Assembly: GCF_018336915.1 (NCBI RefSeq)
Contig: NZ_CP064923.1
Span: 2,940,001 to 2,972,000 of the forward strand
Direction of reading: 5' to 3'
Origin: Acaryochloris marina S15
GTDB taxonomy: Bacteria; Cyanobacteriota; Cyanobacteriia; Thermosynechococcales; Thermosynechococcaceae
DNA: 32,000 nucleotides
The translations under genes were made by a program, and so were the position numbers. This document shows positions 6,076-24,526 of this stretch, piece by piece. The notes under the pieces are model-generated. The model saw nothing but the letters and a program-made list of their open reading frames with translations, was not told the DNA's origin and ran no database searches. How positions within the stretch are numbered: position 1 is the stretch's first letter; each line of letters begins with the position of its first letter.

Positions 6076-6107
6076 GGAAATTCTATGTAATTAATTTTGT
6101 CCATCTG

Positions 6108-7979: not shown

Positions 7980-7980
7980 A

Positions 7981-8014: not shown

Positions 8015-8015
8015 T

Positions 8016-8335: not shown

Positions 8336-8534
8336 TTGAACAAGAAAGTCTCTGATCAGAAAATTAGTGAATCTGATATTCGAGCAATCTACCATCAAGG
8401 TGAGGATGCGGTTGTTGAACTAGTCACCCGTCTTATCGAGCGGATAGAGCGACTAGAAGAACGTCTTGACAAGGATAGTCGTAACAGTAGTAAACCACCC
8501 TCAGGCGATGGCTTTGGGAAGCGGACAAAAAGTC
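8336..8534 (+). pseudogene. IS66-family transposase N-terminal fragment (right-arm copy)
   Basis: Protein identical to 7381-7659(-). IS66-like similarity ends after ...GKRTKSL. Confidence 0.7.
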
Positions 8535-8687
8535 TGCATATTCTCACAAACTTCGCCACCCCTTTGGAGGGCAACCTCGCCGGTCAAATGGCAATAAACT
8601 TCGCCACCCCCTAACCATCATTTCGACAGGTCATTCCCCCTAACCAGACCAGGCCAACCTCTAAACTTCTGTGCATTAGCCAGAGGA

Positions 8688-9551: not shown

Positions 9552-9657
9552 CTGATTGCCTGACAGAAGTAGGTCAAAGCCTTTATTTACATAGTTTATG
9601 AGAAAAGAGTGGAGAGACATGTGAGGCTAGATTTAATCACAAATCAGCGTTATTCAA

Positions 9658-9888
9658 ATGTCAGGCCCCACCCAAATTTATCGTCAACTGTTTTCCTTTT
9701 TACGTCAACACAGCCATTATCGAGATTTGCGCCATCTCATTGCTCTGGGCTGGATGGTAAGCGCCTTAATCTGTAGTGAACGCTTAAGCTTATCTGCCTG
9801 GGAATCCTATGTTCCCTGCCGAGCCAGAAAAGCCCAAAGTGTCGAGCGTCGGTGGCAACGATTTATAGCCAATCAACGCATTGATAAG
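9658..9888 (+). pseudogene. IS4-B transposase N-terminal fragment
   Basis: Identical to the left-arm fragment; truncated by IS630. Confidence 0.75.
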
Positions 9889-9920
9889 CAGATGGACAAA
9901 ATTAATTACATAGAATTTCC

Positions 9921-10981
9921 CTAAGTACAGGACAAAAACGGTAACACCTCCCGGAACTCATCTGCCCTCTGGTCGAGATTGAGAACAATGCCTCGTAGAT
10001 GCTCAAAGCCATAACGAAAGATGCTTTTGGTTCTCCTGCCATGTTTCTTGAGCTTAAGAGGCTTGAGTTGATGCAACCATTGTCCAGTGCGAAAGGCCCA
10101 GCACAGAGCCAAAGTCAGTAATGCGAATAACTTACTGAGCCGCTCTACATCTTGTAGATGGGTAGATTCGAGACAAAATCCACGGGTTTTGAAAATGCCA
10201 AAGAGGGTTTCAATCCCCCACCGATGTGCATAATCAGAGATCGCAGTTTTAGGTGCATGAGCCGTCGCAACAATTAGTAGCTTCCCATCCTCAAGCTTGA
10301 GTGCAGCAACATAAACCCAATGGCCCATAAGCATCGACGATTCTTGAGTACCTGAGTCTGGTTGGGTTTCAAATGGGCAAAAACAACCTTACCTTTGAGA
10401 CCTGTTCGCCCCTTGGAGAGTTTGTCACTTTCACGAATGCGAATTCGGAAAGGCATGCGAGTTTGCTTGAGCAGATATTCAAACCACTGTTCTCCCATAA
10501 ACTCTCGGTCTGCCGTCAAGCACTGGACCTGTCGCTGGGGAAACAACTGTTGCCATTCATCCAGGAGCTCTATGCGTTCTTGAGTATTAGAGTTTCCCTT
10601 CTTATCTAGCATCCACCACAGCACTGGAAAAGCTACACCCTCATGAACAATTCCTAGTGTCAGGATATTGAACACGACTGAACCAAATTGCCATTGGGTG
10701 CGGTCAATACTAAGGACCCAAGGTTCAGGGATATCCATCAAGGACACGACGGTATGGGCAAAGTCGTAGTAATCTAGCTCAAAATTACGGAAGAATCGTT
10801 GTAAGCGTTTGTAGTGAGCGTCTTGAGTCGCTTTACCTCTAAATCCTGTCGCCAATTCTGAAAGGTTGACGGTCTTTACCCGAAACAGAGCTATCAAAAA
10901 TAAGGCGACAAAGCTCAATCGAGCACCATGCCATCGCAAGTGGGGCTGCAAGGTTTGACGAAGAAGAGTAACCTGATTCAT
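9921..10981 (-). pseudogene. IS4-C transposase, split into 235-aa and 137-aa ORFs by a 1-nt deletion relative to the left-arm copy
   Basis: The right copy has CCC at 10324-10326 where the left copy has GGGG at 5669-5672. Otherwise the two ORFs (10274-10981, 9921-10334) match the 353-aa protein. Confidence 0.85.
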
Positions 10982-11060
10982 AGGGTTTCATTGTGAGGGG
11001 TAGTTATCTCCATGGAACCCTATCTTTGTCTACGCTTTCAAGTTTTTGTCCTGTACTGAG
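9921..11060 (-). mobile_element. IS4-family element C (right-arm copy), 1140 bp
   Basis: Terminal inverted repeats ctaagtacaggacaaaaac (9921-9939) and gtttttgtcctgtactgag (11042-11060). 9-bp target duplication agaatttcc at 9912-9920 and 11061-11069, immediately inside the IS630 terminal repeat. Confidence 0.9.
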
Positions 11061-11111
11061 AGAATTTCCAGGTTGTAAACTACCTGAGTCCTCTTTTTTA
11101 CATCCATTGAT

Positions 11112-12112
11112 TTGATGTCAATTGTCCGTCCTATCTCCACCGAAAGCTTACGCTTATTGCATCGGATTTATCGCTGTAGTCGCCATCATCAGGTCAGACA
11201 ACGCGCCCATTGCCTCATTTTGTCTGCCCAGGGTGTGAGTCCCTACACCTTAGCCTCCCTTTTTAGTGTGAGTCCTAAAACCGTGTACAACTGGCTTAAG
11301 GCTTGGAATAACCGTGGTTTTGCAGGACTCTATAATCGCCCAGGTCGAGGTCGAAAACCGATGTTTAATCCCGACCAACAACAGCAGATTTATGAGTGGA
11401 CTCAGGCATCTCCCATCCAACTCAATCGGGTGCTAGCTCAGATTGAACAGCAGTGGTCAGTGCGCGTGTCAAAGGCCACCGTTAAACGCGTCTTGAAGCA
11501 GATGGATATGAGCTGGCATCGCTTTCGCCAAGGGACATCAGGCCAGCCTTTATATGCCGACTACCTCGAAAAAAACAGCAGTTAGAACATCTCAAGAAAC
11601 AAGAAGAGAAGGGAGACATCCACCTATTCTTTATGGATGAGAGTGGTTTTTCGTTAGTCCCCTGTATTCCCTACGGATGGCAACCCATAGGGACTTATCT
11701 GGAAATACCGACTCGTTCAAGTAAACGCTTGAATGTTCTGGGGTTTTTGAGTCGACGACAAGGGCTACATGCTTATACATCAGAACAGACCATCACCAGT
11801 GAGGTTGTCAGTCATTGCATTGATACCTTCTTTACTGACGTGGAGTTGCCCACCGTCATTGTGATGGATCAAGCCCCTATCCATACGAGCCAAGCAATCT
11901 ATGAGATGAAGGCAGAGTGGGCCGAACGGGGAATTACCTTGTTTGAGTTACCAAGCTATTCTCCCCATCTAAATTTGATTGAGCGTCTGTGGCAATTCAT
12001 GAAATATCAGTGGATTGAAATGAGTGCCTACTGGGGGTGGTCATCTTTGGTCGAATATGTGGAAAGAGTTTTGAAAACCTATGGCGATGATTATGTAATT
12101 AATTTTAGCTAA
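11112..12112 (+). CDS. IS630-family transposase in two frames (11112-11585 and 11633-12112), joined at A7 run 11569-11575
   Basis: Same proteins as 3883-4883(-). Frame 0 to frame -1 transition at gaa aaa aac. Confidence 0.85.
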
Positions 12113-13063
12113 GTGCTTATTAACAAGCTATATGTACCTCTAGTCCTGCTAGCCCTTAAGAACTGGCAATCTCATCGTCTATACCTGGCAATGGATACAA
12201 CGGTGTTATGGAATGAATATTGCATGATTCATCTATCCGTCGTCTGCTGTGGCAGAGCAGTACCGTTGTTGTGGAAAGTATTAGAGCACAAGAGTGCAGC
12301 TGTCGCTTTTGAGGAATATCAACCGCTATTGCGCCAGGCCCGTTGGTTATTGCGGCAGCATCCAGATGTCATGGTGTTAGCAGATCGTGGGTTTGCGAAC
12401 CATCAACTGATGAGCTGGTTACAACAGAGCCATTGGCATTACTGTCTGCGTGTCCCTTGTGATGTCCTTCTCCATGGTCCACGTCAATGTCCAAGAGAAG
12501 TCCGACAATTGTGGCCATCCAAAGGCGAAGCCCTCCTCTACCGCAATGTCGGTCTTTGGGAAGATGGCATCTATCGGTGCAATCTGGTGTTGGCTAATAT
12601 CCGAGGAGTGAAAGAACCATGGGCGGTGATTACAGATGAATCACCCACGCTACAGACCTTGTGGCAATACGCTTTGAGGTTTCGGGTCGAAGAATTATTT
12701 CTCGATAGTAAGTCTGGAGTGTTTGAGCTAGAAGAGTCGAAAATTCGCTGTGCTGATGCATTAGAGAGGCTTTATCTGGTTGCTGCTGTGGCACTGCTAT
12801 TCAGCACGACTCAAGGAATGGCTGTTCACATTAAAGGGCTGCGCCAACAGGTTGATCCACATTGGCGGCGAGGCATTAGTTATCTCAAAATTGGATTACG
12901 GTGGCTCAAGGGGGTAGTCCATAAAGGACGGGAGTTGTTGATGCCAGTCCCCTTGCTCTGCCATGATCCACAACCGTGTTTTGCGTCTAAAAAAGCTCAA
13001 AAGAAATACTACAACAAAATCTGGTTCTCTCACATCCGCTCTTTACAGTGCAAGGCTTTATGA
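12113..13063 (+). pseudogene. IS4-B transposase C-terminal catalytic part
   Basis: Identical to 2932-3882(-); YREK signature present. Confidence 0.85.
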
Positions 13064-13096
13064 GCAGGGGAAGGCAAAGATCTGTCAGGCAGTCAG

Positions 13097-13806
13097 GTTT
13101 CAAACACCTCAATGAGGCTATCGCAGTGGGGCTGGAGAAACTCAATCATCGGACCATGAAATCCTATGGTCTCTCGCGTCGAGAATTATTTGAGCAAGTG
13201 GACCAACCAGAACTCAGGCCCTTGCCCAGTCAAGTGTTTGAGTTTGGAGAATTTAAGAACGCAAAAGTGAGTTTTGATTATCACATTGAGGTGAACCGCC
13301 ACTATTACAGTGTCCCTTATGAATATGTGGGGAAATCAGTATCCGTCAAGATTACGGAATCTTTGGTGCAGATTTTCCATGACCATCAGCGCATTGCGAT
13401 ACATGAACGTTCTAGCTTGCCGTTTCAGCATTCCACTGAAGAGGGGCATATGCCACCAGCGCATTTGGCTTACAAAACCCAATCGAGAGAGACCTTCCTG
13501 GCTTGGGCCCAGAATGTTGGACCGGCGACAAAGCAGCAAGTGATAGATATCTTTGAGAAGAAAGCCCATGATGAACAGGCGTTTCGTGCTTTGAAAGGGG
13601 TGCAACATCTAAGAACAACCCATGGTGCTCAGCGATTGGAGGCGGCCTGTAAGCGAGCGAATGCCATGGGGATGGTGGGTCAACGCTATCTCAAGTCCAT
13701 GCTCCAACACAAACTGGAATCTGACCCCTTACCGGATGAGGAGCATAAGGTGGTGCTTCTTCACCATGCCAATGTCCGTGGGTCCAAATACTATCAAGCA
13801 ACTTAG
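13097..13806 (+). pseudogene. istA: IstA C-terminal fragment
   Basis: Identical to 2189-2898(-). The first 16 residues of ORF 13048-13806 derive from the IS4-B end. Confidence 0.85.
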
Positions 13807-13818
13807 GGGGAGACAACG

Positions 13819-14682
13819 ATGCAAGCAATGATTGACCAGCTGCAACACATGAAGCTTACGGAACTCTTGGAGGCTTGGCGAGAACAGCAGGCCTTGCCCA
13901 CCTATCATGATCTATCGTTCGATGAACGACTCGCTTTGATGGTAGAGCGTGAATACATCCGACGACAAAACCAACGGATGCAGCGCCGACTCCGGCAAGC
14001 TCGACTGCCGGTGCACGCCACCCTTGATGCAGTGGATTTTGATGTGCCCAGAGGGCTCAAAAAGATCCAGTTTCTCGAATTTGCTCAAGGCCATTGGCTC
14101 CAAGAAAATCTGTCATTGATTTTGCTTGGTCCCACGGGCGTGGGAAAGTCTTTCTTGTCAGCTGTACTGGCCCATCATTTGTGCAAACAAGGCCATAGCG
14201 TGCGCTATATCAAAACCGCTGATCTGGTTCTGGAGTTGAAGTTAGCCAAAGGAGATGGGTCTTATCCCAAACTCCGAAAACAATTAGCGGCTTACGATCT
14301 ACTCGTGCTCGATGAATGGCTTAGAGATCCACTGTCTGTCTTTGAGGCTAGAGAAATACTCGATATCTTAGATGAGCGTTTCCGTAAAGCTTCCTGTTTA
14401 TTTGCCACGCAAATGCCCCTCGAACAATGGCACTCACAAATTCAAGATCCCACCCTGGCTGATGCCATTCTTGACCGGATTATTCATGATGCGATGAAGG
14501 TCCCGCTTCGAGGAGAATCCATGAGGAAATTGACCAGTAAACTGACCCTGAAGCCAGAAGGGGACATCAGTAATGACCGTTCAGATGAGGATAAAACAAC
14601 GAGTGAAACAACCGCTACATCTAAGCCCAAAACACAAAAGGAGAAAAGGAATGAAAAAAAGGAAGGACAGATGGATGAATAG
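13819..14682 (+). CDS. istB: IS21-family helper ATPase IstB
   Basis: Identical to 1313-2176(-); Walker A/B motifs. Confidence 0.9.
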   Translation: MQAMIDQLQHMKLTELLEAWREQQALPTYHDLSFDERLALMVEREYIRRQNQRMQRRLRQARLPVHATLDAVDFDVPRGLKKIQFLEFAQGHWLQENLSLILLGPTGVGKSFLSAVLAHHLCKQGHSVRYIKTADLVLELKLAKGDGSYPKLRKQLAAYDLLVLDEWLRDPLSVFEAREILDILDERFRKASCLFATQMPLEQWHSQIQDPTLADAILDRIIHDAMKVPLRGESMRKLTSKLTLKPEGDISNDRSDEDKTTSETTATSKPKTQKEKRNEKKEGQMDE

Positions 14683-14904
14683 ACCCGATGAGCTCACGAT
14701 ATTCCTTTCGTGATATGTATGGATTCAGATCTAATTTTTTGCCTATGAATTGCAACAGCATTTTGGACATCTCAATTTACTCACCCGATATTAGCGAGTG
14801 AGTAAATTGATAGATTTTCGTCTGTTGCTACAAACTACGCAGCAATTGGACTCGCAGGTATTTTTGATTTCCCTTTTTTGACCACTGGTAAACGAGGACG
14901 AAGG

Positions 14905-16203
14905 GTCTGTGTTTGTCCTGAAGGGGCGACATGCGTCGTAAACCCCTTGCTATTTGTGCAATAACCCGATAGATAAGAAAAAAGATGGGCTGCAAATGAT
15001 GTATCTCCAGCTCACCTTATTGACAATGATATTGCCACTATACCAACCCCATTTACGCCGTCAACTGTCTCCTGCCCAGTATCTTCTCCTAGAGATCCTC
15101 GTTCATCTATTACAAACACTTCGCTGCGTCAAAATCGAGACGCTAGCAGAAGGGCTGCCACTGCCGATTCTTTTTGACAGTCGCCGAAAAAAATCCAACG
15201 GTTCTTATCCTTACCGACCCTTGAGCTTGAAACGCTTTGGGGCTACCGCTGGTTAAGCTGTGGCTGAGCCAGCAGTATCCTCAAGGCTCCCAGCTTTATG
15301 TCGTCATCGACCGTACGAGTTGGGGAGTGATTAATCTATTGGTGGTCAGCGTGGTCTGGCAACATCGCGCTATTCCCGTATGGTGTGAAGCCCTCTGCAA
15401 AAAGGGCAGCAGCAACTATGACGAGCAAACCGCTGTTTTAAGCAAAGTTATCAGCCATTTATCAGCCTATCGTCTGGTCATCCTCGGTGACCGAGAGTTT
15501 TGTTCCGTCAAGCTGGGGCAGTGGTTAGGCCAACAAGAGGTCTACTTTTGTCTGCGACTCAAGCGCAATACCGAAGTGGCTCTGGCTCAGCAGTTTACTC
15601 AACAACTCCAACAGTTTGGCCTTGTCCCAGGTCAAAAGCTATTTCTCAATGATGTGCGCGTCACTCAGGCTAAAGGCTTTGGAACTTTCAATGTGGCAGC
15701 CAAGTGGAAACGACGGTATCAGGGGTTTGCACCTGATGAAGCATGGTTTATTCTCACCAACTTCTGTGACCTCAATAGTGCTATCGTCAGCTACCAAAAA
15801 CGCTTCTCTATCGAAGAAATGTTTCGGGACTTCAAGAAAGGAGGCTATTGTCTCGAAGGCTCTCAAGCCATGCAAGAACGGTTGGTGGCTATCGTTATTG
15901 TGATTGCCATTGCCTATACCAGTGCGGCACTGCAAGGGCAAAATCTCAAGCAAAAAGGACTACAGCGCTATATTACTAGACCCGAATCCACCACTTCACT
16001 GAACAAGCGGCATAGTGCATTCCGAGTTGGACTATCTGCGTATATGTGGGCCATAACGGGGGATGGAGTTCTGGCTCGATTGGTGGATGAGCTAATGAAA
16101 CTCTCTCCCAATAAGCTACCTGAGTATCAACGGGGGATGAGAGCGATGGAGCTTGTCTGTGCTGGGTTGTAGCCTTCATGTCGCCCCCTCAGCTGAAACA
16201 GAC
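14905..16203 (+). mobile_element. IS4-family element A (complete copy; the palindrome passes through it)
   Basis: Core terminal inverted repeat ctgaaggggcgacatg (14918-14933) vs catgtcgccccctcag (16177-16192), 1 mismatch. There is weaker extension outward to gtctg (14905) and cagac (16203). No target duplication found. Confidence 0.65.
14954..16172 (+). pseudogene. IS4-family transposase of element A, in three frames (two 1-nt frameshifts)
   Basis: Frame change at A7 run 15187-15193: an extra A gives ...DSRRKKIQRFLSLPTLSLETLW. Second change at GGGG 15239-15242: an extra G gives ...LWGLPLVKLWLSQQY. The downstream part has VVIDRTSW, ILGDREF and YQKRFSIEEMFRDFK. Confidence 0.8.
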
Positions 16204-16942
16204 AATCCTTATTGTCAGCCCCATCCCGCAATCATGATGGTCACAGGCTATGTGGTAGAGAGAGGTTTAATCTTGCCCCCTTATGAAGTTGACCAGAAGA
16301 CCAATGAAATCAAGGCCTTGCCTGAAATGATTGAGCAGCTTGCTCTCAAAGGAGTGGTCTTTGCCTTTGATGCCATCAACACCCAAAAAAACAGCACAGC
16401 TCATTGTTGACAGTGGCAATGAGTATCTCGGGGCGCTCAAAGGCAACCAGAAAGGATTACTGACTGATGTGAAAGCACATTTTAAGCCAGAATCAACGGT
16501 TGAAACCCTGGGAAAAGGGCATGGTCGCATTGAAAAGCGAACCGTTAGTATCTGCCGTGACCTGAGTAATATTCGACAATGGCCAGGTCTCAAAACACTC
16601 ATTCGGGTTGAATCACAACGCTCTGAAATCTATAACGACATGATTGTCGATACCCAAGAGACTCGCTATTACATCACGTCACTCCTGGAGGAGGTAGAAC
16701 CTTTGGCACAAAGAATTCGGGGGTATTGGGGAGTAGAAAACAAGGTCCATTATGTTCGCGATGTCACCCAAGGTGAAGATGCTTCAAGGATTCGGACCAC
16801 ACCCCTTATTGGCCTGTTCGTACAAGCGCGTAATCTATCACTCAATCTTTATCGAGAATATGGATTCACCAATATGGCTCAGGCAAAGCGACGATGTGAA
16901 CAATCACTAGACATACTGATGGATGTTTTTAGAATGAAATAG
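16204..16942 (+). pseudogene. ISAs1-family transposase, N-terminally truncated and frameshifted at A7 run 16385-16391
   Basis: ...AIMMVTGYVVERGLILPPYEVDQKTNEIKALPEMIEQLALKGVVFAFDAINTQK / KTAQLIVDSGNEYLGALKGNQ...YWGVENKVHYVRDVTQGEDASRIRT matches the conserved ISAs1 (H-repeat) core. The ORFs 16153-16410 and 16331-16942 are consecutive parts in different frames. Confidence 0.8.
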
Positions 16943-17142
16943 CCCTGGTGGGAAGGGAGTATTCATGCAACAATACCCAATCGACAATGAATTCATTCAA
17001 CCATTGAATGTCTTGCTCCTGTCCACTTTTTCGAGTAAAGGTCACTGTCTACTTTTTCGAGACAAGATCATTTCAAAAATGGGCGAACCGTGAGTACAAG
17101 ATATATCGACTACTACACAGCTTTTTTTCAAAGGCTTTAATC

Positions 17143-17835
17143 TCAAACTTCAAAGTTAAATCCTTGTTGCTTCAATAGCTCATATTTGCTTTGGTCGAAC
17201 TGATAGAGCCTAGCAGCACGATGGGCAACTCCAATTTGTCGCTCATCCAGAGAGATTAAGAGATCCATTTTTAGCAATTTCTTACGGAAGTTACGTTTAT
17301 CTAAAGGATGACCCAAAACCGTTTCATAGAGATGCTGGATTTGGGTGAGCGTAAATTTTTGCGGCAGTAATTCAAAACCAATCGGTTCATAACGAACTTT
17401 GCTCTGCAAGCGGTGGATAGCCTGTTTCAAGATTTGAGCATGATCGAAGGCTAGGGATGGTAAATTTCCAAGGGAATACCAAGCTGCATCTTCAGCATCA
17501 GTAGCGGCCTGTAAGGGATATTCAATTAGGTTGATTAAAGCGTAGTAGGCAACGGAGATGATGCGATCGCGCGGATCTCGACCCAAATCACCAAAGGTAT
17601 AGAGCTGCTCTAGAAAGATACCTTGAACACCCGTTTCTTCCTGTAGTTCCCGGCGAGCCGCTTCTTCTAAAGATTCATCCATCTGCACAAAGCCGCCAGG
17701 CAGTGCCCACTGATGCTGGAAGGGAGGAATCTGGCGCTGAATTAGTAGGATTTTGAGATCAATCTGTTCGTCTAAGCCAAACACCACACAGTCAACGGTA
17801 AGACCAGGGCGCGGATAGTCATAGGTATAGGGCAT
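17143..17835 (-). CDS. nrtR: NrtR-family regulator: Nudix hydrolase domain fused to a C-terminal winged-helix DNA-binding domain
   Basis: Intact Nudix box [24 protein letters not shown] (GX5EX7REUXEEXGU). The C-terminal [33 protein letters not shown] is the hallmark NrtR wHTH segment. Size is 230 aa. Confidence 0.85.
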
Positions 17836-17850
17836 AGGATAGGGTCAATC

Positions 17851-17879
17851 TTGACATCGTGTAAAAGTGACACTATGAT
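17851..17879 (+). promoter_or_regulatory. Sigma70-type promoter for the PP2C-led operon: TTGACA (17851-17856), 17-nt spacer, TATGAT (17874-17879)
   Basis: Read directly: cTTGACAtcgtgtaaaagtgacacTATGATag. It lies 16 bp from the nrtR start codon and about 40 bp upstream of ATG 17920. Confidence 0.6.
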
Positions 17880-17910
17880 AGATTTAGTTGAGTTAGTGTC
17901 ACTTTTACAC
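17859..17910. promoter_or_regulatory. Candidate operator: 17-bp perfect inverted repeat GTGTAAAAGTGACACTA (17859-17875) / TAGTGTCACTTTTACAC (17894-17910)
   Basis: Arms are exact reverse complements. Each arm holds a mini-palindrome AGTG-N-CACT. The left arm fills the -35/-10 spacer. Confidence 0.6.
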
Positions 17911-17919
17911 TATAGAGCA

Positions 17920-18771
17920 ATGCAACAGCATTTTGAAGTCGCGGCTGGGTCTATTTTGGGCCAGAACCATCGACGAGTCAGTCAGAATAATCAGGATGCT
18001 TGGGCCATTCTTACACCAGGTCAAGCAACCATTGCGGTGGTATGTGATGGGTGCGGGAGTCGACCTAAAAGTGAAGTCGGAGCGCAGCTAGGGGCTCAGT
18101 TAACGGTGCACACTCTTGCTCAATTAGTGGCAGAGGAACGACCAGAAGACGAGCTGTTTTGGCAGACATTGAGAAAGCGCCTATTAGAGAAGATGCAGAC
18201 TTTAAAGGAGCCGTTAGGAGCGGATGAACAAGGGCTGTTGGATTACTTCTTATTCACCCTGACTGGGTGTTTAGTAACCCCAGAAACAACCTGGATTTTT
18301 GGTCTAGGGGATGGGGTATTTGCCATCAATGAGCAGCTTCATCAGATTGGTCCATTTGCCAATAATGCTCCGCCCTATTTGGCATACAGCTTGCTATGGG
18401 AAGCCGAGAAAGGCCCCGATCCATTTCAACTCCAGATTTATGCTCAACAACCTACTGAGCAGGTGCAGTCTGTGCTGATTGGAAGCGATGGGGTAGGGGA
18501 CTTAATGAATGTAGCGGAAGAGTATCTCCCTGGAAAGTTGGAACCTGTGGGACCACTGAATCAGTTCTGGTGTTGCGATCGCTATTTCCAGAATCCTGAT
18601 CAGGTGCGACGACGGCTCGCTCAAATCAATAGAGAGGTGATACAGCCGGACTGGGATGCTCAGCAGGTGCGGAAGATTCCAGGTTTATTACCGGACGACA
18701 CTACGTTAATCAGTATTAGACGGAAAGAGACGGAAGAAGGAGGCAGTGATGCTAGGTGCGATCGCAGGTGA
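17920..18771 (+). CDS. PP2C-family (PP2C_2-like) Ser/Thr protein phosphatase
   Basis: NQDAWAI, VVCDGCGS and LIGSDGVGD metal-binding aspartate motifs. Start moved from 17851 to the in-frame ATG 17920, because the upstream 23 codons overlie the promoter/operator. Confidence 0.75.
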   Translation: MQQHFEVAAGSILGQNHRRVSQNNQDAWAILTPGQATIAVVCDGCGSRPKSEVGAQLGAQLTVHTLAQLVAEERPEDELFWQTLRKRLLEKMQTLKEPLGADEQGLLDYFLFTLTGCLVTPETTWIFGLGDGVFAINEQLHQIGPFANNAPPYLAYSLLWEAEKGPDPFQLQIYAQQPTEQVQSVLIGSDGVGDLMNVAEEYLPGKLEPVGPLNQFWCCDRYFQNPDQVRRRLAQINREVIQPDWDAQQVRKIPGLLPDDTTLISIRRKETEEGGSDARCDRR

Positions 18772-19558
18772 CATGATTGGGTCAGTTTTTGAGCCCCATT
18801 GGCGACGAATGAAACGGAAAGAGTTTGAATTATTTAGTAAGAAATCGAAATTTACAGACGATACGGTACTTACGATGGTCCCCGACCGGCCTTCGGCCAT
18901 CGCAGTTGCGGATGCCATTCTCCATCAGAAGGAGTATGTCCATAGCATCAAGGACTATTATCGGCGCTATCCCAAAGCTGGCTATGGCAGAACCTTTCGA
19001 GAATGGGGGGCATCAGACAGCTTGGAACCGTATCACAGTTGGGGGAATGGTTCAGCCATGCGGGTCAGTGCTGTTGGATTTGCCTTTGATGATTTAGAAA
19101 CGGTATTGCGAGAAGCGAAGCGAAGTGCAGCCGTCACCCATGATCACCCAGAAGGGATTAAGGGAGCACAGGCAACTGCGGCAGCCATTTACCTAGGGCG
19201 ACAGGGGCAGTCTAAGGCGGAGATTAAAGCCTATATCGAAGCAACCTTTGGCTATGACTTGAGTTTGAGCCTGGAAGAGATTCGACCCCAGTATCAGTTT
19301 GATAGCTCCTGTCAGGGGTCGGTACCCCAGGCGATCACGGCATTTCTAGAATCTACAGATTTTGAAGATGCGATTCGCAATGCCGTATCGCTTGGAGGTG
19401 ATAGTGATACCCAAGCCTGTATTGCCGGTGGTATTGCTCAAGGGTTTTATGGTGGGGTACCAGAAAGGATTGCCCAGGAGACTTGGAAACGGCTCGATGC
19501 AGACTTACAGCAGGTGGCCACGACGTTTATACAGACTTTTGAGATCAAACAAGTTTAA
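18749..19558 (+). CDS. ADP-ribosylglycohydrolase (ARH/DraG-like) family protein
   Basis: N-terminal GAIAGDMIGS, FTDDT, SWGNGSAMR and C-terminal GGDSDTQACIAGGIA are the conserved ARH metal-binding and fold motifs. The ATG overlaps the PP2C gene 3' end by 23 nt. Confidence 0.8.
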   Translation: MLGAIAGDMIGSVFEPHWRRMKRKEFELFSKKSKFTDDTVLTMVPDRPSAIAVADAILHQKEYVHSIKDYYRRYPKAGYGRTFREWGASDSLEPYHSWGNGSAMRVSAVGFAFDDLETVLREAKRSAAVTHDHPEGIKGAQATAAAIYLGRQGQSKAEIKAYIEATFGYDLSLSLEEIRPQYQFDSSCQGSVPQAITAFLESTDFEDAIRNAVSLGGDSDTQACIAGGIAQGFYGGVPERIAQETWKRLDADLQQVATTFIQTFEIKQV

Positions 19559-19559
19559 A

Positions 19560-19574
19560 GCAATACGGTATTGC
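19560..19574. promoter_or_regulatory. 15-bp palindrome GCAATACgGTATTGC, first of five GCAATAC/GTATTGC heptamers in the 155-bp ARH-kinase spacer
   Basis: Heptamers at 19560, 19573 and 19640 (forward) and 19568 and 19676 (reverse). Confidence 0.4.
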
Positions 19575-19713
19575 AATACGGATTTATTTTAGGTGCGCTA
19601 GCAAAAAGCTCAATCTCTTTTCTGTGAAGAGGTTTTAGGGCAATACTGTATTTTATAAGATCGTATCGTCAATTGGTATTGCGATACGAAGCTCATGCTA
19701 CTTCTAAATTTCT

Positions 19714-21591
19714 ATGGACGTTTATATCAATCAAAAACGAGTTCGCCTACGCCCTAAGCAAGCGATTGGGAAGGGGGGAGAAGCGGATGTGTATCGCCTC
19801 AATCGAACCACGGCGGTGAAGCTATTTAAGTCTCCCAGTCATCCTGATTTTGTGGGCATGGCTGAGGCTCAGCAGGGCGCACGGGAGCGGTTGGCGCTGC
19901 ATCAGCAAAAGCTGCGGCAGTTTCCCCAGTCGTTACCTGAGCGGGTGATTGCCCCACAGGGGTTGGTGATGAATCAAGGCGGACGGCGAATTTTAGGCTA
20001 TACGATGCCGCTGGTGGCGAATGCGGAGGTGCTGTTACGGTATTGCGATCTCCGAAGGAGGGTCGGGGACCATCGCAGGCGGGTCGGAGACCATCGCCAG
20101 GTTCGGCAGACGATAGACACACAGGTGGTGGTCAATCTATTTCTGGATCTGCACGAGACGGTGGCCAAGCTGCATTGTGCAGATGTGGTGATTGGAGATT
20201 TTAATGACCTAAATATTTTAGTGCAGGGCACCCAGGCATTTCTGATTGATGCCGATTCATTCCAGTTTGGTTCATTTCCCTGTTCGGTGTTTACAGCCCG
20301 CTTTGTCGATCCACTACTGTGTGATCCGCAGGGAACACAGCCTATTTTATGTCGACCCTATTCCTGGGAGTCAGATTGGTACGCCTTTACGGTAATGCTG
20401 ATGCAGGCACTGCTGTTTGTTAATCCTTATGGTGGTGTTTATAGACCGTCTGATCCAGCTCAGAGATTGCCTGCGGCAGCTCGCCCCTTACATCGGATAA
20501 CGGTGTTTCATCCCCAGGTACGCTATCCGAAGCCGGCTTTACCGTGCGATCGCTTACCGGAAGCATTGTTAGATCATTTTCAGCGGGTGTTTGAACAGGA
20601 TTGGCGGGGAGCATTTCCGCGATCGCTATTGGAAAATTTGCGCTGGCAAACCTGTCCGTCCTGTGGGGTTGAACATGCTCGATCTGCTTGTCCCAGCTGT
20701 GTGCAATCTATAGGGGTTGCTCCACCCGTTCAGCAGGGACAGGTTAAGGTCACGACGGTCTTACAAACGGATGGGGTGATCTTGGCGGCTACGTTGACAG
20801 CAGGGCATCTGCAGTGGTTGGTCTGGGAGGAGGGGCAGTTTAAGCGGGAAGACGGAGCGGTGATGCTCACGGGCGATCTCAGTCCTGAGTCCGACTGGTA
20901 TCTACAGGGTCAAACTACTTGGATCGCACAGCAGGGTCAGGTGGTGAGATTATCGGCAGATACGGAGCGGATCTCGGTGGATTGCTATCAAGGTCGGCCC
21001 CAGGTTGCGGTGAATGATCGGCATTGTTATTGGTTGAGCCAAGGACAGTTAATGCGGGACCACTCAGTGGTGGGGGAGGTATTGGCCGGACAAACCCAGT
21101 TTTGGGTGGGACCTCGGTTTGGACTGGGTTTTTATCGAGCCGGACGGCTGAACGGGGCTTTCGTCTTCGATGTCCAGCGCTCAGGGATAAATGATCGGCT
21201 GTCGTTGTCCATGGGAGCGGGGACGATAGTGGCGGCCAACTGCACGTTTAGTCAATCTTTGGGATGGCTCTTCGTGACGATCCAGGACCAAGGGGTACTT
21301 CAACAGCAATGTTGGGTAATCGCACCGACGGGTCAGGTGGTGGCTCAGGCCGATGTGGGGGAATGGACGGCAGGGAGATCGCCCATTTGTCCCCATTGGG
21401 CGGTGGAAGATGCCCTGCTGGTGGCGACGGATGAGGGCATTGCTCGGGTGCAGGTAGATCAAGGGCGATTGATCCTGCAGCGACAATTCCCGGAAACGGA
21501 GCCGTTTGTGCAGACGGGCTATCAGGTATTGGCGGCTCCCCAGGGACTCTATACGGTAGGGTCCCAAACCATTCAGTTATTGCAGTTGTAG
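19714..21591 (+). CDS. Protein-kinase-like protein (N-terminal ~300 aa) with CxxC-x10-CxxC zinc-ribbon and ~290-aa uncharacterised C-terminal domain
   Basis: Gly-loop [16 protein letters not shown] lysine, catalytic-loop-like [15 protein letters not shown]-equivalent [31 protein letters not shown] lies at 20653-20700. Confidence 0.75.
20053..20094 (+). repeat. In-frame 21-bp tandem duplication encoding RRRVGDH x2 inside the kinase gene
   Basis: cgaaggagggtcggggaccat / cgcaggcgggtcggagaccat. The three nucleotide differences are all synonymous. Confidence 0.9.
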
Positions 21592-21602
21592 GAGATTTTA
21601 AA

Positions 21603-22634
21603 ATGATGTTGACGCAATTACCCATTCCTAATTTCTTTGACCCTCAACGGGTGGGGAAGGTGTGGCGGGTCCCTTACCAGGACAGAGTCCAACAGGCCCG
21701 GGACTGGGCAAGCCAACAGGGGGTGCAGCCAGCAGCGAAGGATAAAATGCGGATTTGTCTGATGGCAATTGATGTCCAAAATACGTTTTGTATTCCCGAC
21801 TTTGAGCTGTTTGTGGGGGGACCGTCTGGGATGGGGGCAGTGGAGGATAATCGCCGACTTTGTGAGTTTATCTACCGCAATTTGGGGACGATTACGGAAA
21901 TTGCACCGACGATGGATACTCATACGGCGATGCAGATCTTCCATGCTGATTTTTGGCTGAATGATCGCGGCGAGTCTCCCACGCCCCTGACGATGATTTC
22001 TTTGGCAGAGGTGGAACAGGGGGCCTGGAAGGTGAATCCGGCAATGGCCTATAGTCTGGGCAATTATATGGCTCTGCAGAATTTTGCCCGCCACTATGTC
22101 CAACGCCTTTCCCAGAAGGGGAAATATCCCCTGACTATTTGGCCCTATCACTCGATGTTGGGAGGCATTGGCCATGCCCTGGTGGCGGCGGTGGAGGAGG
22201 CCTGCTTTTTCCATAATCTGGCTCGCCATAGTCAGACCAATTTTGAAATCAAGGGGGGCAATCCTCTGACAGAAAATTACTCGGTGCTCCGACCGGAGGT
22301 TCTCGATGATCCGAAGGGACGGCCGATTGCCCAAAAGAATATCCGGTTTATCCAAAAGCTGTTGGATTTTGATGTGGTGATTATTGCTGGGCAGGCCAAG
22401 AGTCACTGTGTCGCCTGGACTATCGATGACTTACTCACGGAAATTCAAGCCCATGACCCGGACTTGGCGAAGAAAATTTACCTGCTGGAAGATTGTTCTT
22501 CGCCGGTGGTGGTGCCAGGGGTGGTCGATTTTACGGAGCAGGCCAATGAGGCATTTCTACGGTTTCAACAAGCGGGCATGCATTTGGTGCGTTCTACGGA
22601 TGAGATCGCAGGTTGGCCTGGCATCAATCCTTAG
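21603..22634 (+). CDS. Isochorismatase-superfamily cysteine hydrolase, nicotinamidase-like, unusually long (343 aa)
   Basis: AIDVQNTFC (PncA-like DxQNxFC), [11 protein letters not shown] (Asp/His metal-site-like) and [13 protein letters not shown] (nucleophile Cys). GGAG lies 8 nt upstream; only 11 nt separate it from the kinase stop. Confidence 0.7.
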
Positions 22635-22740
22635 ACGGATTAAACTATGGCTCGATCAGCGTCTGCTGGGTCTGCTGGCTTTTCTCAATAATGCGTCAAT
22701 CACTTCCTCTCTATACACCTCACTTTTTAAGGAGAATGTT

Positions 22741-23520
22741 ATGTCTCAAGTTCCGAATCTAAATGCACTATTCCAATCAGCCCAAGCGGATGGGGTACTC
22801 TCACAGGCATCGATGCAGGCCCTCAATATTGTCGATATTGGGGCACAGATCCAGGCTGGCCTGGGAACGCCAGTCGATGATGTGATGGCTAGTGAGGTGG
22901 TGCTGGTGACAATCATGCCGGATGATTCGGGTTCGATTCGGTTTGCCGGCCATGGGGCGGTGGTCCGGGCTGGACATAATACGGTGCTGGATACGTTGGC
23001 CATGTCCCCACAGAAAGACCATATTCTTGTTCACAACCGCTATCTCAATGGGGCGGTGCTCTATCCCTACTGTTCTGTTGACCAAGCGATGCGGATGGAT
23101 CAACACAATTATGATCCGAATCTGGGAACGCCGCTCTATGACCAAACTCTGGTGTTACTGGCTACGGTTCTAGCGAAGGCCCAAGCTTTTATCGATAATG
23201 GGGTGCCGGTGCGGACGGTATCTCTGATTATTACGGATGGAGCGGATGCCCATTCTCGGCGTTCTGTCCGGGAGGTCAAGATAATGGTCGAGGATATGCT
23301 GCGCACGGAAGACCATATTATTGCAGCAATGGGCATCGATGATGGACAGACGGACTTTAAACGGGTGTTTCGAGAGATGGGGGTGCGTGAACAATGGATC
23401 TTGACGCCGGGCAATTCCCATAATGAGATTCGGAAGGCTTTTCAGCTCTTCTCCCAGGCGGCGCTCACGGCCAGTCAGTCGGCACATAACTTTAATCCAA
23501 TGGGCGGATTCACGGCTTAG
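22741..23520 (+). CDS. von Willebrand factor A (vWA/TerY-like) domain protein with complete MIDAS motif
   Basis: VTIMPDDSGSIRF (DxSxS), GTPLYD (Thr) and LIITDGADAHS (Asp). AAGGAG lies 7 nt upstream of ATG 22741. The longer ORF from 22384 overlaps the previous gene in another frame. Confidence 0.75.
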   Translation: MSQVPNLNALFQSAQADGVLSQASMQALNIVDIGAQIQAGLGTPVDDVMASEVVLVTIMPDDSGSIRFAGHGAVVRAGHNTVLDTLAMSPQKDHILVHNRYLNGAVLYPYCSVDQAMRMDQHNYDPNLGTPLYDQTLVLLATVLAKAQAFIDNGVPVRTVSLIITDGADAHSRRSVREVKIMVEDMLRTEDHIIAAMGIDDGQTDFKRVFREMGVREQWILTPGNSHNEIRKAFQLFSQAALTASQSAHNFNPMGGFTA

Positions 23521-23567
23521 ATATGAGAAATGAGGCTAGAAGATGATCCTGGGGGCAAAGGCCAATA

Positions 23568-24059
23568 TCAATCAGGGGGCGATTCAGAGGTTATGGCAGG
23601 CTTTAATGCACAAACCAAATCATGACGAGTAATGATGCCTATCAAACATTGATCTTTATCAACCACAGGTAAACGGTTAATCTTCTTAGTCAACATCAAG
23701 TTGGCCGCAGACGTCAAAGGCATATCAGGCTGAGTTGTGATCGGCTGGTTTGTCATCACATCTTGAACCAACATCCCAAATGCTTTTTGCATATGCTGAT
23801 GGAATTGCTTCGGTGACTCAAAATAAATCACGCTTCCAAGCAATGTCATATATAGAGGAGGTTTCATAGGAGATTCTCTAACCAACAAATCACCTTCAGA
23901 AATAATGCCAACAACATGATTTACATCATCAACAACTGGCAAACCACTAATTCGGTGGTCTTCTAACAGCTTAATTACCGTCTCTAAAGAATCTGTGGGA
24001 GAGATAGCAATAGGATCTGGGGTCATAAAGTCTTTGACCACGGGACGAGAAATAGCCAT
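23568..24059 (-). CDS. CBS-domain pair protein
   Basis: 163 aa with two CBS repeats (VKDFMTPDPIAISPTDSL...ISGLPVVDD; VQDVMTNQPITTQPDMPL...INRLPVVDK). Confidence 0.85.
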   Translation of the reverse strand: MAISRPVVKDFMTPDPIAISPTDSLETVIKLLEDHRISGLPVVDDVNHVVGIISEGDLLVRESPMKPPLYMTLLGSVIYFESPKQFHQHMQKAFGMLVQDVMTNQPITTQPDMPLTSAANLMLTKKINRLPVVDKDQCLIGIITRHDLVCALKPAITSESPPD

Positions 24060-24115
24060 TAGCTCACCTATTTGATGTGTTAATTGCTCAGTCTGAAGCG
24101 ATACTATTCTATAAA

Positions 24116-24526
24116 TTAGTGAGTGGGAACTCTAGCTTTAACAAACCCCCAATCAGGACGTAAATGCCTGGCGCCTCTTTGGTAGATGTGATGAATCGGT
24201 TGATTCGGATCAGGAGTATTGAAATGAATCAAACAGCGTATACAAAAATCCAAATCACTTTCTACATACATTTGCTGCACATCTAGCAGGGGGACAGTAT
24301 CCCAGTTGGGACGCTGACGAGCAATTGCTGCAGGGAAAACGGCATCTAAATCCCGAGTAACAGAAAACGTTACGCTAATAATCTCATTCACATCCAGAGA
24401 ATTTTCTGACTCAATGGCCAACATGAGCTCAGTAACGACTTCCCGTATTGCGGCAACGGAATTCTCAGAAGCAGTCGTTGCCCCACGAATTGCTCGTACT
24501 TTCCATGACACAGAATTATCCTCCAT
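24116..24526 (-). CDS. aroH: Chorismate mutase, AroH class
   Basis: VRAIRGATT N-terminal motif, ~130-aa size and the VPLLDVQQM segment are typical of AroH-type monofunctional chorismate mutase. Confidence 0.8.
   Translation of the reverse strand: MEDNSVSWKVRAIRGATTASENSVAAIREVVTELMLAIESENSLDVNEIISVTFSVTRDLDAVFPAAIARQRPNWDTVPLLDVQQMYVESDLDFCIRCLIHFNTPDPNQPIHHIYQRGARHLRPDWGFVKARVPTH

Follow-up and report, generated by a model that had tools for sequence, protein, structure and literature searches.

The locus described here belongs to a predicted NrtR-repressed, widely conserved module which, in the reading we prefer (probability of roughly 0.5), would respond to NAD+ cleavage and handle its products, with a TerY-P-type phospho-switch as the gate. 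In Acaryochloris marina it comprises six genes, nrtR on the minus strand and, divergent from it, PP2C-ARH-kinase-ISO-vWA on the plus strand (17143–23520). We use ISO as the label for the gene of a long PncA-like, nicotinamidase-type cysteine hydrolase. As judged from the comparison of homologous loci, the invariant centre of the module is the ISO-vWA pair, not ARH, and ISO is the hub gene.

Re-reading of the open reading frames returned the six genes and the spacing that had been claimed for them. PP2C and ARH overlap by 23 nt with ATG 18749 as the ARH start (the ARH ORF itself opens at GTG 18746), and spacers of 155, 11 and 106 nt separate ARH from kinase, kinase from ISO and ISO from vWA, respectively. 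The genes from PP2C to vWA are predicted to form one operon behind a σ70-type promoter. Pfam searches of the locus proteins matched the expected NUDIX plus NrtR_WHD, PP2C_2 and ADP_ribosyl_GH families, and gave no match above threshold for kinase, ISO and vWA. No gene for an ADP-ribosyltransferase or NADase was found within the locus, in line with the original prediction.

Table 1. Features of the Acaryochloris marina locus; positions refer to the window, i.e., the whole 32-kb stretch of DNA that was analysed.
Feature	Position	Strand	Evidence or remark
nrtR, Nudix and winged-helix repressor, NrtR/AraR family	17143..17835	-	Pfam NUDIX 5.8e-22, NrtR_WHD 6.5e-28
σ70-type promoter, TTGACA - 17 nt - TATGAT	17851..17879	+	11/12 consensus matches, best site in 17000–24200
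Predicted NrtR operator box 1, ATCGTGTAAAAGTGACACTAT	17856..17876	.	PWM 23.2 bits; between -35 and -10
Predicted NrtR operator box 2, TTAGTGTCACTTTTACACTAT	17893..17913	.	PWM 25.5 bits; just 3' of -10
Divergent promoter-like site for nrtR, GTGACA - 16 nt - TATCAT	17902-17875	-	10/12; overlapped by box 2
PP2C-type Ser/Thr phosphatase, PP2C_2 family	17920..18771	+	Pfam PF13672, 2.3e-22
ARH3-like ADP-ribosylglycohydrolase, accessory	18749..19558	+	Pfam PF03747, 2.4e-34
ARH-kinase spacer	19559..19713	+	Perfect 15-bp palindrome GCAATACGGTATTGC and related repeats
Kinase-like protein	19714..21591	+	Kinase domain, 4-Cys Zn ribbon and beta-rich C-terminal domain
Kinase domain, about aa 1–300	19714-20613	+	Pkinase matches in the family
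21-bp tandem duplication within the kinase gene	20056..20097	+	Adds RRRVGDH twice; strain-specific
4-Cys Zn ribbon, aa 311–332	20644-20709	+	Four cysteines invariant in family
Kinase C-terminal domain, beta-rich, without assignment, aa 340–625	20731-21588	+	
ISO, nicotinamidase-type cysteine amidohydrolase, 343 aa	21603..22634	+	Fold match, motifs, homologues
vWA, complete MIDAS, N-terminal helical extension	22741..23520	+	AF2 pLDDT 85, fold matches

Control by NrtR, also claimed at the outset, is backed by phylogenetic footprinting, which revealed two operator palindromes over the promoter. Both boxes are 21 bp long and are the sole PWM matches in the 32 kb; with the threshold set far lower, the number expected is still only 0.25. 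Box 1 has a perfect GTGT-N7-ACAC core at the same place in 19/19 loci with a short intergenic region between nrtR and PP2C, and box 2 is present in all but one of these (18/19; L059 has one box). The TTGACA element and the box that follows it are kept in other cyanobacterial loci as well. The boxes fit the GT-N7-AC core of published NrtR sites, from which NrtR is released in vitro by ADP-ribose (PMC2330246). Divergent transcription of nrtR from the shared region suggests autoregulation. Among PDB sequences, NrtR matches AraR (5bs6, 1e-57) and Shewanella NrtR (3gz5, 1e-36); since its closest solved relative is the Bacteroides AraR, an arabinose sensor, its effector is not certain. The Nudix signature is intact when the translation is read against GX5EX7REUXEEXGU (PMC2330246), and NrtR therefore probably also hydrolyses ADP-ribose, like NuhA.

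The arrangement PP2C-(ARH×0–3)-kinase-ISO-vWA was found across cyanobacterial orders with order, orientation and tight spacing kept. The neighbourhood is not specific to this strain but strongly conserved, whereas a lack of conservation outside the strain would have spoken against the original prediction; recurrence in dozens of independent genomes places the arrangement far beyond chance. Sufficient flanking sequence was available for 56 cyanobacterial loci, of which 23 have PP2C-kinase-ISO-vWA and 27 have ISO on its own; the triad accompanies about 45% of cyanobacterial ISO loci. Where a kinase gene is present and enough downstream sequence is available, vWA is always found (31/31 loci). Could nrtR and a pncA-like gene simply form an ordinary NAD-salvage regulon, next to which PP2C, kinase, vWA and ARH just happen to lie? 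Both pncA and pncB are classical members of NrtR regulons (PMC2330246) and ISO is often solitary, yet we consider this very improbable and rejected it. In the PWM scan the boxes lie 5' of the first gene PP2C, not of ISO, in every full cluster, whether nrtR is located elsewhere or not. The conserved gene order, orientation and spacing, the strict kinase-vWA linkage and the co-occurrence of the four families in viral contigs in circularly permuted order (see below) also contradict it. Boxes 5' of ISO were seen in the loci with ISO-vWA only and in the split Kovacikia locus, and most of the cyanobacterial loci with ISO alone have no box of the GTGT-N7-ACAC type.

The best solved relatives of ARH are ARH3/ADPRHL2 (4e-17), to which it aligns in the metal motifs TDDT and GGDSDT. 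Its copy number varies between zero and three in relatives; it is missing from 15/36 cyanobacterial clusters and was not detected in the viral cassettes with the cyanobacterial ARH profile. As ARH is optional, the ARH-driven feed-forward induction that had been proposed cannot be the core logic of the system. Nor is the feed-forward idea new: Iyer et al. (2022; PMC9503650) put it forward for related, ARG-centric systems, in which ADP-ribose freed by the ARG would lift a Nudix-HTH repressor. These systems are the closest published idea. No published description of the cassette was found in the searchable literature, as had been claimed for the five-gene combination. Overall, the original prediction is supported in part.

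ISO homologues are 74–94% identical across cyanobacteria and are annotated at their source as isochorismatase or nicotinamidase-related amidase. The only significant match in a fold search against PDB was the A. baumannii nicotinamidase 2wta (E 3e-4), using a predicted structure with pLDDT 74 and low confidence around the active site. The motifs WPxH, KG..YS and SHCV align to what we take to be the M. tuberculosis PncA sequence (hhalign probability 33%). Among 136 unique sequences, D57, D105, H107, H183, K217 and C269 never vary and H114 is retained in 134. The gene first described as PncA-like does encode a long hydrolase with all catalytic and metal residues. Some ISO relatives have a 250-aa N-terminal domain without assignment. 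Motifs and genomic context point to nicotinamide as the probable substrate. That ISO instead hydrolyses another amide or ester (e.g., a modified protein or nucleotide), the NAD link being regulatory only, is doubtful. The isochorismatase superfamily has many substrates, ISO is 100–150 residues longer than PncA owing to an N-terminal extension and insertions, its match to Pfam isochorismatase is below threshold, and the additional domain of some relatives would also fit. However, the nicotinamidase-specific metal ligands (D105-x-H107, H114, WPxH183) and KG..YS are kept beside the D-K-C triad, the sole fold match is a nicotinamidase, and the family repeatedly adjoins NrtR, Nudix, macro-domain, ARH and NAD kinase genes.

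The vWA protein was predicted to have a full MIDAS, and both fold and motif agree: the top PDB and viral matches of the model are all vWA/integrin I domains, and D61-x-S63-x-S65...T130...D166 is invariant in the family. In the kinase family K36, D162, N167 and D179 are invariant, and 30/32 members match Pkinase weakly; active-site residues are invariant in all three families (ISO, vWA and kinase). A Sphingomonas plasmid carries a canonical vWA-PP2C-kinase/Zn-finger triad, whose kinase is homologous to the Acaryochloris kinase (hhalign 98.3%, E 2e-14), as is the kinase of a viral-contig cassette (99.6%, E 1e-23). With BLASTP the PP2C matched the Sphingomonas triad PP2C (2e-6) and that of a gut viral-contig cassette (3e-8). 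Together, the MIDAS-vWA, the PP2C_2 phosphatase and the Zn-ribbon kinase uphold the assignment to a TerY-P-like triad. The C-terminal domain of the kinase is common only to cassettes in PP2C-kinase-ISO-vWA order, and the RRRVGDH insertion is missing from 31 aligned homologues.

We propose that NAD+ consumption by ADP-ribosyltransferases, sirtuins or NADases would yield free ADP-ribose, which would bind the Nudix domain of NrtR and cause it to leave both operators; the module is probably inducible by ADP-ribose. ISO would act on nicotinamide, the second product of NAD+ cleavage, or on a compound that contains it, and by deamidation yield the corresponding acid, which would enter Preiss-Handler salvage while a product inhibitor is removed. 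Where present, the ARH3-like enzyme would take ADP-ribose off modified substrates or O-acetyl-ADP-ribose and so supply more inducer. The vWA protein, kinase and PP2C would make up the phospho-switch: the MIDAS face of vWA would bind ISO or a shared client, reversible phosphorylation would set the timing, and the C-terminal domain of the kinase would be the sensor. The triad may act on ISO or on another client.

A four-gene core (ISO, MIDAS-vWA, PP2C and Zn-ribbon kinase) recurs in cyanobacteria and viral contigs. IMG/VR holds 188 ISO relatives. Of 83 ISO loci in viral contigs or phage records, 81 have vWA nearby, 72 PP2C and 67 kinase, and at the level of ISO clusters at 60% identity (n = 15) the counts were 12, 12 and 11. 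These cassettes have the order ISO-vWA-PP2C-kinase, a circular permutation of the cyanobacterial order, with intact active sites, and the homology between cyanobacterial and viral members was confirmed pairwise. In three huge-phage genomes, vWA and kinase-like genes lie close to ISO, and NrtR adjoins the cassette in two large viral contigs (L156, confirmed by Pfam, and L159). The ISO-vWA pair also recurs with NrtR on betaproteobacterial megaplasmids: in the soil bacterium Variovorax, NrtR is divergent from ISO-vWA, with Nudix, macro-domain and NAD kinase genes adjacent. Carriage by phages and megaplasmids fits a role in conflict no less well than one in housekeeping salvage.

These findings qualify the claim that the locus is host-adapted, which holds for the Acaryochloris marina copy, while homologous cassettes are located on phage/viral contigs and megaplasmids. 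Five HIP1 sites (GCGATCGC) were counted inside the locus, as reported before, against zero in 1–17000 and nine in the window (0.26 expected), and the cyanobacterial cluster looks vertically inherited. The viral copies could mean that the cassette serves phages or mobile elements in counter-defence, converting nicotinamide from host TIR/SIR2 NADases to nicotinate under kinase/phosphatase control and thereby restoring NAD+, the cyanobacterial copies having been domesticated long ago as part of the NrtR NAD regulon. Large phages commonly carry NAD+ synthesis genes (PMC9503650, section 3.6), and the NrtR-like neighbours in the two viral contigs would agree with this. We nevertheless regard it as quite unlikely: IMG/VR contigs can take in prophage flanks or misbinned bacterial DNA, in PHROGs neither ISO nor PP2C has an annotated family, the need for a vWA/kinase/PP2C switch is unexplained, and transfer may have run either way.

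Anti-phage defence by a TerY-P variant is likewise unlikely. Here an infection-sensing kinase/PP2C/vWA switch would unleash ISO as the effector, which would destroy nicotinamide or deamidate NAD+/NMN such that NAD+ cannot be rebuilt, leading to abortive infection or blocking phage NAD+ reconstitution; NrtR would hold the system off until ADP-ribose appears. TerY-P-like modules have been reported as stand-alone defence systems (PMC11090510), and the kinase homology to such a triad, the patchy presence of the triad, the viral/prophage-like contigs and megaplasmid, and the IS block abutting the Acaryochloris locus all speak for it, as does a logic the same as that of the ARG-centric systems. ISO and vWA are, however, 70–80% and 62–76% identical across the cyanobacterial phylum in a vertical-looking cluster with many HIP1 sites, which differs from fast-evolving defence genes; ISO is commonly alone; and genes within curated huge-phage genomes argue for counter-defence rather than defence. 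With PADLOC, weak matches of the kinase to PD-T4-6, MkoA and mad6 speak for defence; against it, ISO, vWA and PP2C had no convincing match, though the PADLOC TerY model is narrow and barely detects even the canonical Sphingomonas vWA.

The ORF listing recovered the five co-directional genes and the divergent nrtR of the original prediction (see table), and the predicted spacing is exact, with a 23-nt overlap, a 155-nt spacer, an 11-nt gap and a 106-nt spacer. The operon encodes a PP2C phosphatase, an ADP-ribosylglycohydrolase (ARH), a kinase-like protein, a long nicotinamidase-type cysteine hydrolase (ISO) and a vWA protein. As also predicted, neither the ORF listing nor Pfam revealed an ADP-ribosyltransferase in the locus, and the count of five HIP1 sites within it was reproduced (nine in the window against 0.26 expected, none in its first 17 kb).

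Genes of the nrtR-operon locus and a mirrored ORF pair of the adjoining IS region (window positions)
Feature	Position	Strand	Source
nrtR	17143-17835	-	ORF listing
PP2C	17920-18771	+	ORF listing
ARH	18749-19558	+	ORF listing
kinase-like gene	19714-21591	+	ORF listing
ISO	21603-22634	+	ORF listing
vWA gene	22741-23520	+	ORF listing
IstB-like 287-aa ORF, mirrored pair	1313-2176 and 13819-14682	- and +	palindrome 1-15994

Positions 1–15994 of the window form one perfect palindrome centred at 7997/7998, whose arms (1–5682/10313–15994, 5670–7359/8637–10326 and 7356–7997/7998–8639) are all 100% complementary. It is made of IS genes in mirrored ORF sets and contains no HIP1 sites. The probable explanation is a fold-back assembly artefact at a contig end; the alternative is that IS elements have produced a genuine inverted duplication.

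Three of the predicted protein identities were recovered directly by Pfam: PP2C_2 for the phosphatase (PF13672, E 2.3e-22), ADP_ribosyl_GH for ARH (PF03747, E 2.4e-34), and an N-terminal NUDIX (PF00293) with a C-terminal winged helix, NrtR_WHD (PF21906), for the regulator. PP2C had no match in a PDB sequence search. ARH is nearest to ARH3, to which its TDDT and GGDSDT acidic di-metal motifs align. The kinase, ISO and vWA received no assignment from Pfam, PDB sequence or PADLOC, and since both direct and profile PDB sequence searches gave nothing useful for ISO and vWA, fold prediction was needed. The AlphaFold model of the vWA protein (32 homologs, pLDDT 85) has fold matches in the PDB and BFVD solely to vWA/integrin I domains, and the MIDAS (DxSxS...T...D) is complete, with D61, S63, S65, T130 and D166 invariant. 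Predicted fold and invariant residues together agree with the vWA protein with a full MIDAS that had been proposed.

The ISO model is weaker (pLDDT 74), and its single significant Foldseek match is the A. baumannii nicotinamidase 2wta (E 3e-4, target-normalised TM 0.53). An hhalign alignment with M. tuberculosis PncA brings WPxH, KG..YS and the active-site cysteine of HCV into register. Across 136 unique sequences the catalytic D57, K217 and C269 and the metal-site D105, H107 and H183 never vary (H114 is kept in 134). ISO resembles PncA/Pnc1 in its Asp-Lys-Cys triad, Asp/His metal site and both motifs, and has the one fold match to A. baumannii PncA, but it is longer (343 aa versus about 190–215 aa), falls below the Pfam PF00857 threshold, and belongs to a large family of its own, almost always paired with a dedicated vWA protein. 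PF00857 is reached by one distant family member, P0446, which is a tandem ISO-ISO protein. At E<=1e-30 the ISO family counts 614 representatives among 1.8 billion library proteins clustered at 50%, and it is essentially unannotated; database sources name ISO relatives isochorismatase or nicotinamidase-related amidase. Around 8 of the top 150 representatives (e.g. P0361, P0362, P0367, P0368, P0373, P0379 and P0395) carry an extra N-terminal domain of ~250 aa without a Pfam match. This extension is unlike the vWA, kinase, PP2C, ARH and NrtR profiles, and a Rosetta-stone fusion was therefore rejected.

The kinase-like protein has a Gly-rich loop, K36, a D162-x4-N167 catalytic loop and IDADSFQFG as 'DFG-equivalent', followed by a four-Cys Zn ribbon (CxxC...CPxC) and a ~285-aa domain without assignment. 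The catalytic K, D, N and D and the Zn-ribbon motif are invariant in the family. Pkinase is matched weakly by 30 of 32 relatives, while the PDB yielded only sub-threshold kinase and Nop10 Zn-ribbon matches. A 21-bp tandem duplication at 20056–20097 inserts RRRVGDH twice between kinase subdomains; it is missing from all 31 aligned homologs, one of them 86% identical.

In the summaries of PMC11090510 and PMC4978471 (after Anantharaman et al., 2012), TerY-P brings together a TerY-like vWA, a PP2C and a Ser/Thr kinase that carries a Zn ribbon at its C-terminus. In PLSDB the window kinase has a sole match, a kinase/Zn-finger gene that belongs to a canonical VWA-PP2C-kinase operon of a Sphingomonas plasmid (hhalign 98.3%, E 2e-14), and the IDADSFQ(F/W)G motif is common to both. 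Similarity to the PP2C of this triad is weak (E 2e-6), and the vWA proteins compare at E 0.008 and 5% probability in hhalign, with all MIDAS motifs aligning. The PADLOC TerY model did not match the window vWA even at E<=10. As this narrow model barely detects the canonical Sphingomonas vWA (E 0.0068), the lack of meaningful PADLOC matches across the locus carries little weight. The TerY-P-like triad of the original prediction holds in that one operon encodes all three of its protein types: a vWA with a MIDAS, a PP2C_2, and a Zn-ribbon kinase that is homologous to the kinase of a canonical triad. There are also differences. A three-gene vWA-PP2C-kinase unit free of an inserted enzyme was not seen: ISO, the most conserved member, always lies inside, and the order vWA-PP2C-kinase is permuted to PP2C-kinase-ISO-vWA or ISO-vWA-PP2C-kinase. 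The kinase has its extra ~285-aa C-terminal domain, the vWA is too divergent for the Pfam VWA and PADLOC TerY models, the operon has predicted NrtR regulation, and the locus is without Ter, McrBC/CoCoNuT or DNA-processing neighbours.

The closest solved relatives of the regulator in a PDB sequence search are Bacteroides AraR (5bs6) and Shewanella NrtR (3gz5), and the nearest, AraR, senses arabinose, which makes ADP-ribose less certain as the effector. The Nudix signature GX5EX7REUXEEXGU, read from the translation, is intact, a feature that tracks real ADP-ribose pyrophosphatase activity in the NrtR family, as in NuhA versus Slr1690 (PMC2330246). Against NCBIfam NF050029, the equivalog model of an ADPR-responsive repressor, it scores 184 bits with a cut-off of 400; by sequence it is a family member and not an equivalog of the modelled protein. 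ADP-ribose would be the inducer of the operon.

Two NrtR boxes are predicted between nrtR and PP2C, at 17856–17876 (box 1) and 17893–17913 (box 2), the only PWM sites in the 32 kb. Both fit the published operator, a 21-bp palindrome with a GT-N7-AC core (PMC2330246). Box 1 fills the spacer of the region's best promoter-like site, whose two elements are TTGACA (17851) and TATGAT (ending at 17879). Box 2 comes after the -10 element, where it overlaps a second promoter-like site that points divergently towards nrtR. All short NrtR|PP2C intergenic regions have TTGACA directly before ATAGTGT-N7-ACACTAT, with a second box 5–16 bp downstream of the first except in L059, which has one box. Across the retrieved loci the boxes sit at essentially one place, the operon 5' end: before PP2C, also where nrtR is not adjacent (L015, L034, L036, L048, L050, L007 and L045), and before ISO in loci with ISO-vWA only (L002, L016, L023, L024, L035, L049 and L051) and in the split Kovacikia locus. 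Because the boxes lie essentially at the operon 5' end across loci, all five genes would constitute one NrtR-controlled unit. We consider this regulatory anatomy, with two predicted operators over the -35/-10 elements that keep both position and core across taxa, likely to be correct, and it is in line with the NrtR control originally proposed.

The ARH-kinase spacer (19559–19713) contains a perfect 15-bp palindrome, GCAATACGGTATTGC, at 19560–19574. It also has a near copy at 19641–19653 and an inverted CGTATCG...CGATACG pair, and these repeats are kept in part in two Acaryochloris relatives. One possibility is a second operator, another an RNA element. An Rfam search of 17000–24000 gave no match, so the spacers are without a known riboswitch or sRNA.

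An ISO-seeded genome scan retrieved 80 loci, which were searched by tblastn with all six window proteins. PP2C-(ARH×0-3)-kinase-ISO-vWA, always co-directional, recurs across cyanobacteria, namely in Acaryochloris, Pseudanabaena, Nodosilinea, Scytolyngbya, Kovacikia, Pleurocapsa and relatives, Microcystaceae and Coleofasciculaceae. The nearest retrieved locus, from an Acaryochloris MAG (L005), has the identical gene order. The conservation of gene neighbourhood on which the original prediction depended is seen, variants included. The flanks were long enough in 56 loci. Of these, 23 combine PP2C, kinase, ISO and vWA, 5 have just the ISO and vWA pair, 27 lack the triad around ISO, and in one ISO is accompanied by PP2C and NrtR alone. 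Every kinase-bearing locus with enough downstream sequence also has the vWA (31/31). Identity to the window proteins is highest for ISO (70–80%), vWA (62–76%) and NrtR (66–79%), followed by ARH (55–66%), kinase (45–55%) and PP2C (40–55%). Comparison of the loci shows that the conserved centre of the predicted NrtR-operated operon is ISO with vWA, usually plus PP2C and the TerY-P-type kinase. A physiological role in cyanobacterial NAD turnover is favoured by the high conservation, by the apparent vertical inheritance and by how often ISO stands alone.

Three curated huge-phage genomes and one gut scaffold labelled 'bacteriophage' encode ISO relatives at 31–37% identity, and a scan of IMG/VR, whose contigs were taken as viral by its own assignment, gave 188 relatives. 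Viral loci were searched with iterated profiles built from the cyanobacterial proteins, whose E-values are inflated by construction; the matches had cleared 1e-3 in the first round, and separate checks were made on key pairs. Within 6 kb of ISO, the 83 viral ISO loci have a vWA homolog in 81 cases, PP2C in 72 and a kinase in 67. The order is ISO-vWA-PP2C-kinase in 55 of the 83, a circular permutation of the cyanobacterial order, and PP2C-kinase-ISO-vWA in 6. When ISO is clustered at 60% identity, most of the 15 resulting clusters keep the association. No ARH was detected in the 83 loci with the cyanobacterial ARH profile. Pairwise comparisons bear out the homology with the viral cassettes, at 99.9% for ISO, 87–93% for vWA including a C-terminal helix signature and 99.6% for the kinase through the Zn ribbon, with E 3e-8 for PP2C; the gut-type kinase lies above the Pfam Pkinase threshold. 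The catalytic and metal residues of ISO, the vWA MIDAS and the kinase catalytic residues are essentially invariant (90–136 unique sequences per family). Two large viral contigs, L156 and L159, have NrtR genes next to the cassette (Pfam-confirmed for L156). PHROGs has no annotated family for the cassette proteins. In two gut-type loci (L095 4373–5851 and L086 2255–3706) a second, larger vWA (DUF2828 + DUF7788 + VWA_2) precedes the ISO-vWA-PP2C-kinase cassette. A 592-aa gene after the vWA in huge phage LR745208 was considered as the kinase and dismissed for want of kinase homology; a kinase-like gene lies ~5 kb off.

Variovorax megaplasmids encode a bona fide NrtR divergently from ISO-vWA, and the region separating the two contains a pair of TTAGT-N11/12-ACTAA palindromes. 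Close by are genes for a second Nudix protein, a macro-domain protein and NAD kinase. In Variovorax sp. SRS16 plasmid 2 (L169, 633571–646404) the region also has RecX, AlkB, RNase HII and a nucleoside 2-deoxyribosyltransferase-domain protein. It is an NAD/ADP-ribose-themed island on a megaplasmid.

The recurrence of the same families in viral cassettes, the operator placement and the locus counts, among them the 31/31 kinase-vWA pairing, led us to reject the alternative raised with the original prediction, in which the triad genes were unrelated neighbours of a pncA regulon. A role in conflict is argued for by the patchy triad, its kinship to a reported defence module, and the presence of the cassette in phages and on a megaplasmid.

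The nearest published concept is the ARG-centric systems of Iyer et al. (2022; Viruses 14:1977, section 3.8; PMC9503650), where ARG corresponds to ARH. These systems are described there as regulated by Nudix-HTH or WYL proteins and predicted to act against viral ADP-ribosylation, and the ADP-ribose induction loop, in which released ADP-ribose lifts repression, was already put forward in that paper. Our locus likewise combines an ARG without a linked partner ART, an NrtR-like Nudix-HTH repressor, a linked phosphatase and a vWA 'chaperone', and the same loop is proposed. However, ARG is central in the published account, whereas it is no invariant core here and is absent from 15 of the 36 cyanobacterial loci with PP2C and kinase. 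The phosphatases named there are rhodanese-phosphatase, calcineurin-like, HD or HAD, not PP2C, and section 3.8 mentions neither a kinase nor a nicotinamidase, while our operon has both, the latter as a nicotinamidase-type enzyme. The systems of that account were described as fast-evolving and came from actinobacteria, planctomycetes and proteobacteria, in contrast to the high conservation in cyanobacteria seen here.

NrtR regulons of NAD metabolism, including cyanobacterial Slr1690 and the catalytically active NuhA, are known from Rodionov et al. (2008; PMC2330246). They share with our locus the Nudix and wHTH domains, the GT-N7-AC-core palindrome over the promoter, the divergent arrangement and a pncA-type gene among the targets; the difference is that the targets here include signalling proteins. 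The cyanobacterial regulons listed in that paper comprise nadA, nadE, nadD, pncB and nadM-nadV, and the window operon is not among them, a comparison that leaves aside the RegPrecise 'NrtR2' regulog (PMC5062996). Full-text literature searches combining isochorismatase/nicotinamidase, vWA, PP2C, TerY and NrtR gave nothing relevant, which agrees with the original view of an undescribed combination; they did not extend to the original TerY-P survey or RegPrecise. We read the locus as a TerY-P-type triad joined to a putative NAD-product enzyme and placed under predicted NrtR control.

NAD+ depletion and reconstitution is a central battleground between bacteria and phages. ISO may act on nicotinamide or a nicotinamide-bearing compound, the vWA/kinase/PP2C switch might gate ISO or a shared client, and ARH would free ADP-ribose and so supply more inducer. 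We regard this full mechanism, with ADP-ribose as inducer, as evenly balanced. On our broadest reading, ISO-vWA-PP2C-kinase would be an unrecognised, ancient four-gene signalling/enzyme cassette of cyanobacteria, gut phage-like elements and huge phages, with its ISO-vWA centre on a proteobacterial megaplasmid, and repeatedly NrtR-wired to ADP-ribose sensing. The cassette would open a new arm in the conflict over NAD+ between phages and hosts, where controlled destruction or rerouting of nicotinamide decides NAD+ rebuilding after NADase or ADP-ribosyltransferase attack, and would provide the first enzymatic output for a TerY-P-type phospho-switch. We give this tentative reading a probability of roughly one in three. 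If true, a nicotinamide-consuming enzyme under ADP-ribose control, on both host and phage sides, would add a new move to this conflict. TerY-P-type triads are widespread, and we know of no established output for them. Here the triad is fixed to one assayable enzyme and a regulator from a family with a characterised effector, which makes the phospho-switch experimentally tractable, including which protein is phosphorylated, what partners the MIDAS face and what the kinase C-terminal domain senses. For cyanobacterial physiology, the locus points to a candidate nicotinamidase of very high conservation and to an NrtR-regulon branch so far unlisted.

With 0, 1, 2 and 3 copies in 15, 12, 8 and 1 of the 36 PP2C + kinase loci, ARH is an accessory gene. 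A bacterial OGFr_N (PF04664) gene, found at L001 2594–3142 and in L026, L027, L030, L042, L057 and L063, is accessory too (seven loci). Its position varies: it separates ARH copies, parts ISO from vWA, or accompanies ARH next to a stand-alone ISO. The comparison thus shows both to be lineage-specific additions to the predicted NrtR-operated operon. Four cluster contigs with ISO 72–75% identical (L052, L064, L032 and L068) are binned as Entotheonellaceae, Andersenbacteria, Actinomycetota and Planctomycetota MAGs, but misbinning of cyanobacterial contigs probably accounts for this. The nrtR of L052 and L064 is co-directional, with an identity of only 42–44%. In Pseudanabaena a 198-aa ORF without a Pfam match lies between kinase and ISO (L025 9368–9964 and eight other loci), and its 'VVVVEAKK' stretch gives the impression of a restriction-endonuclease-like motif.
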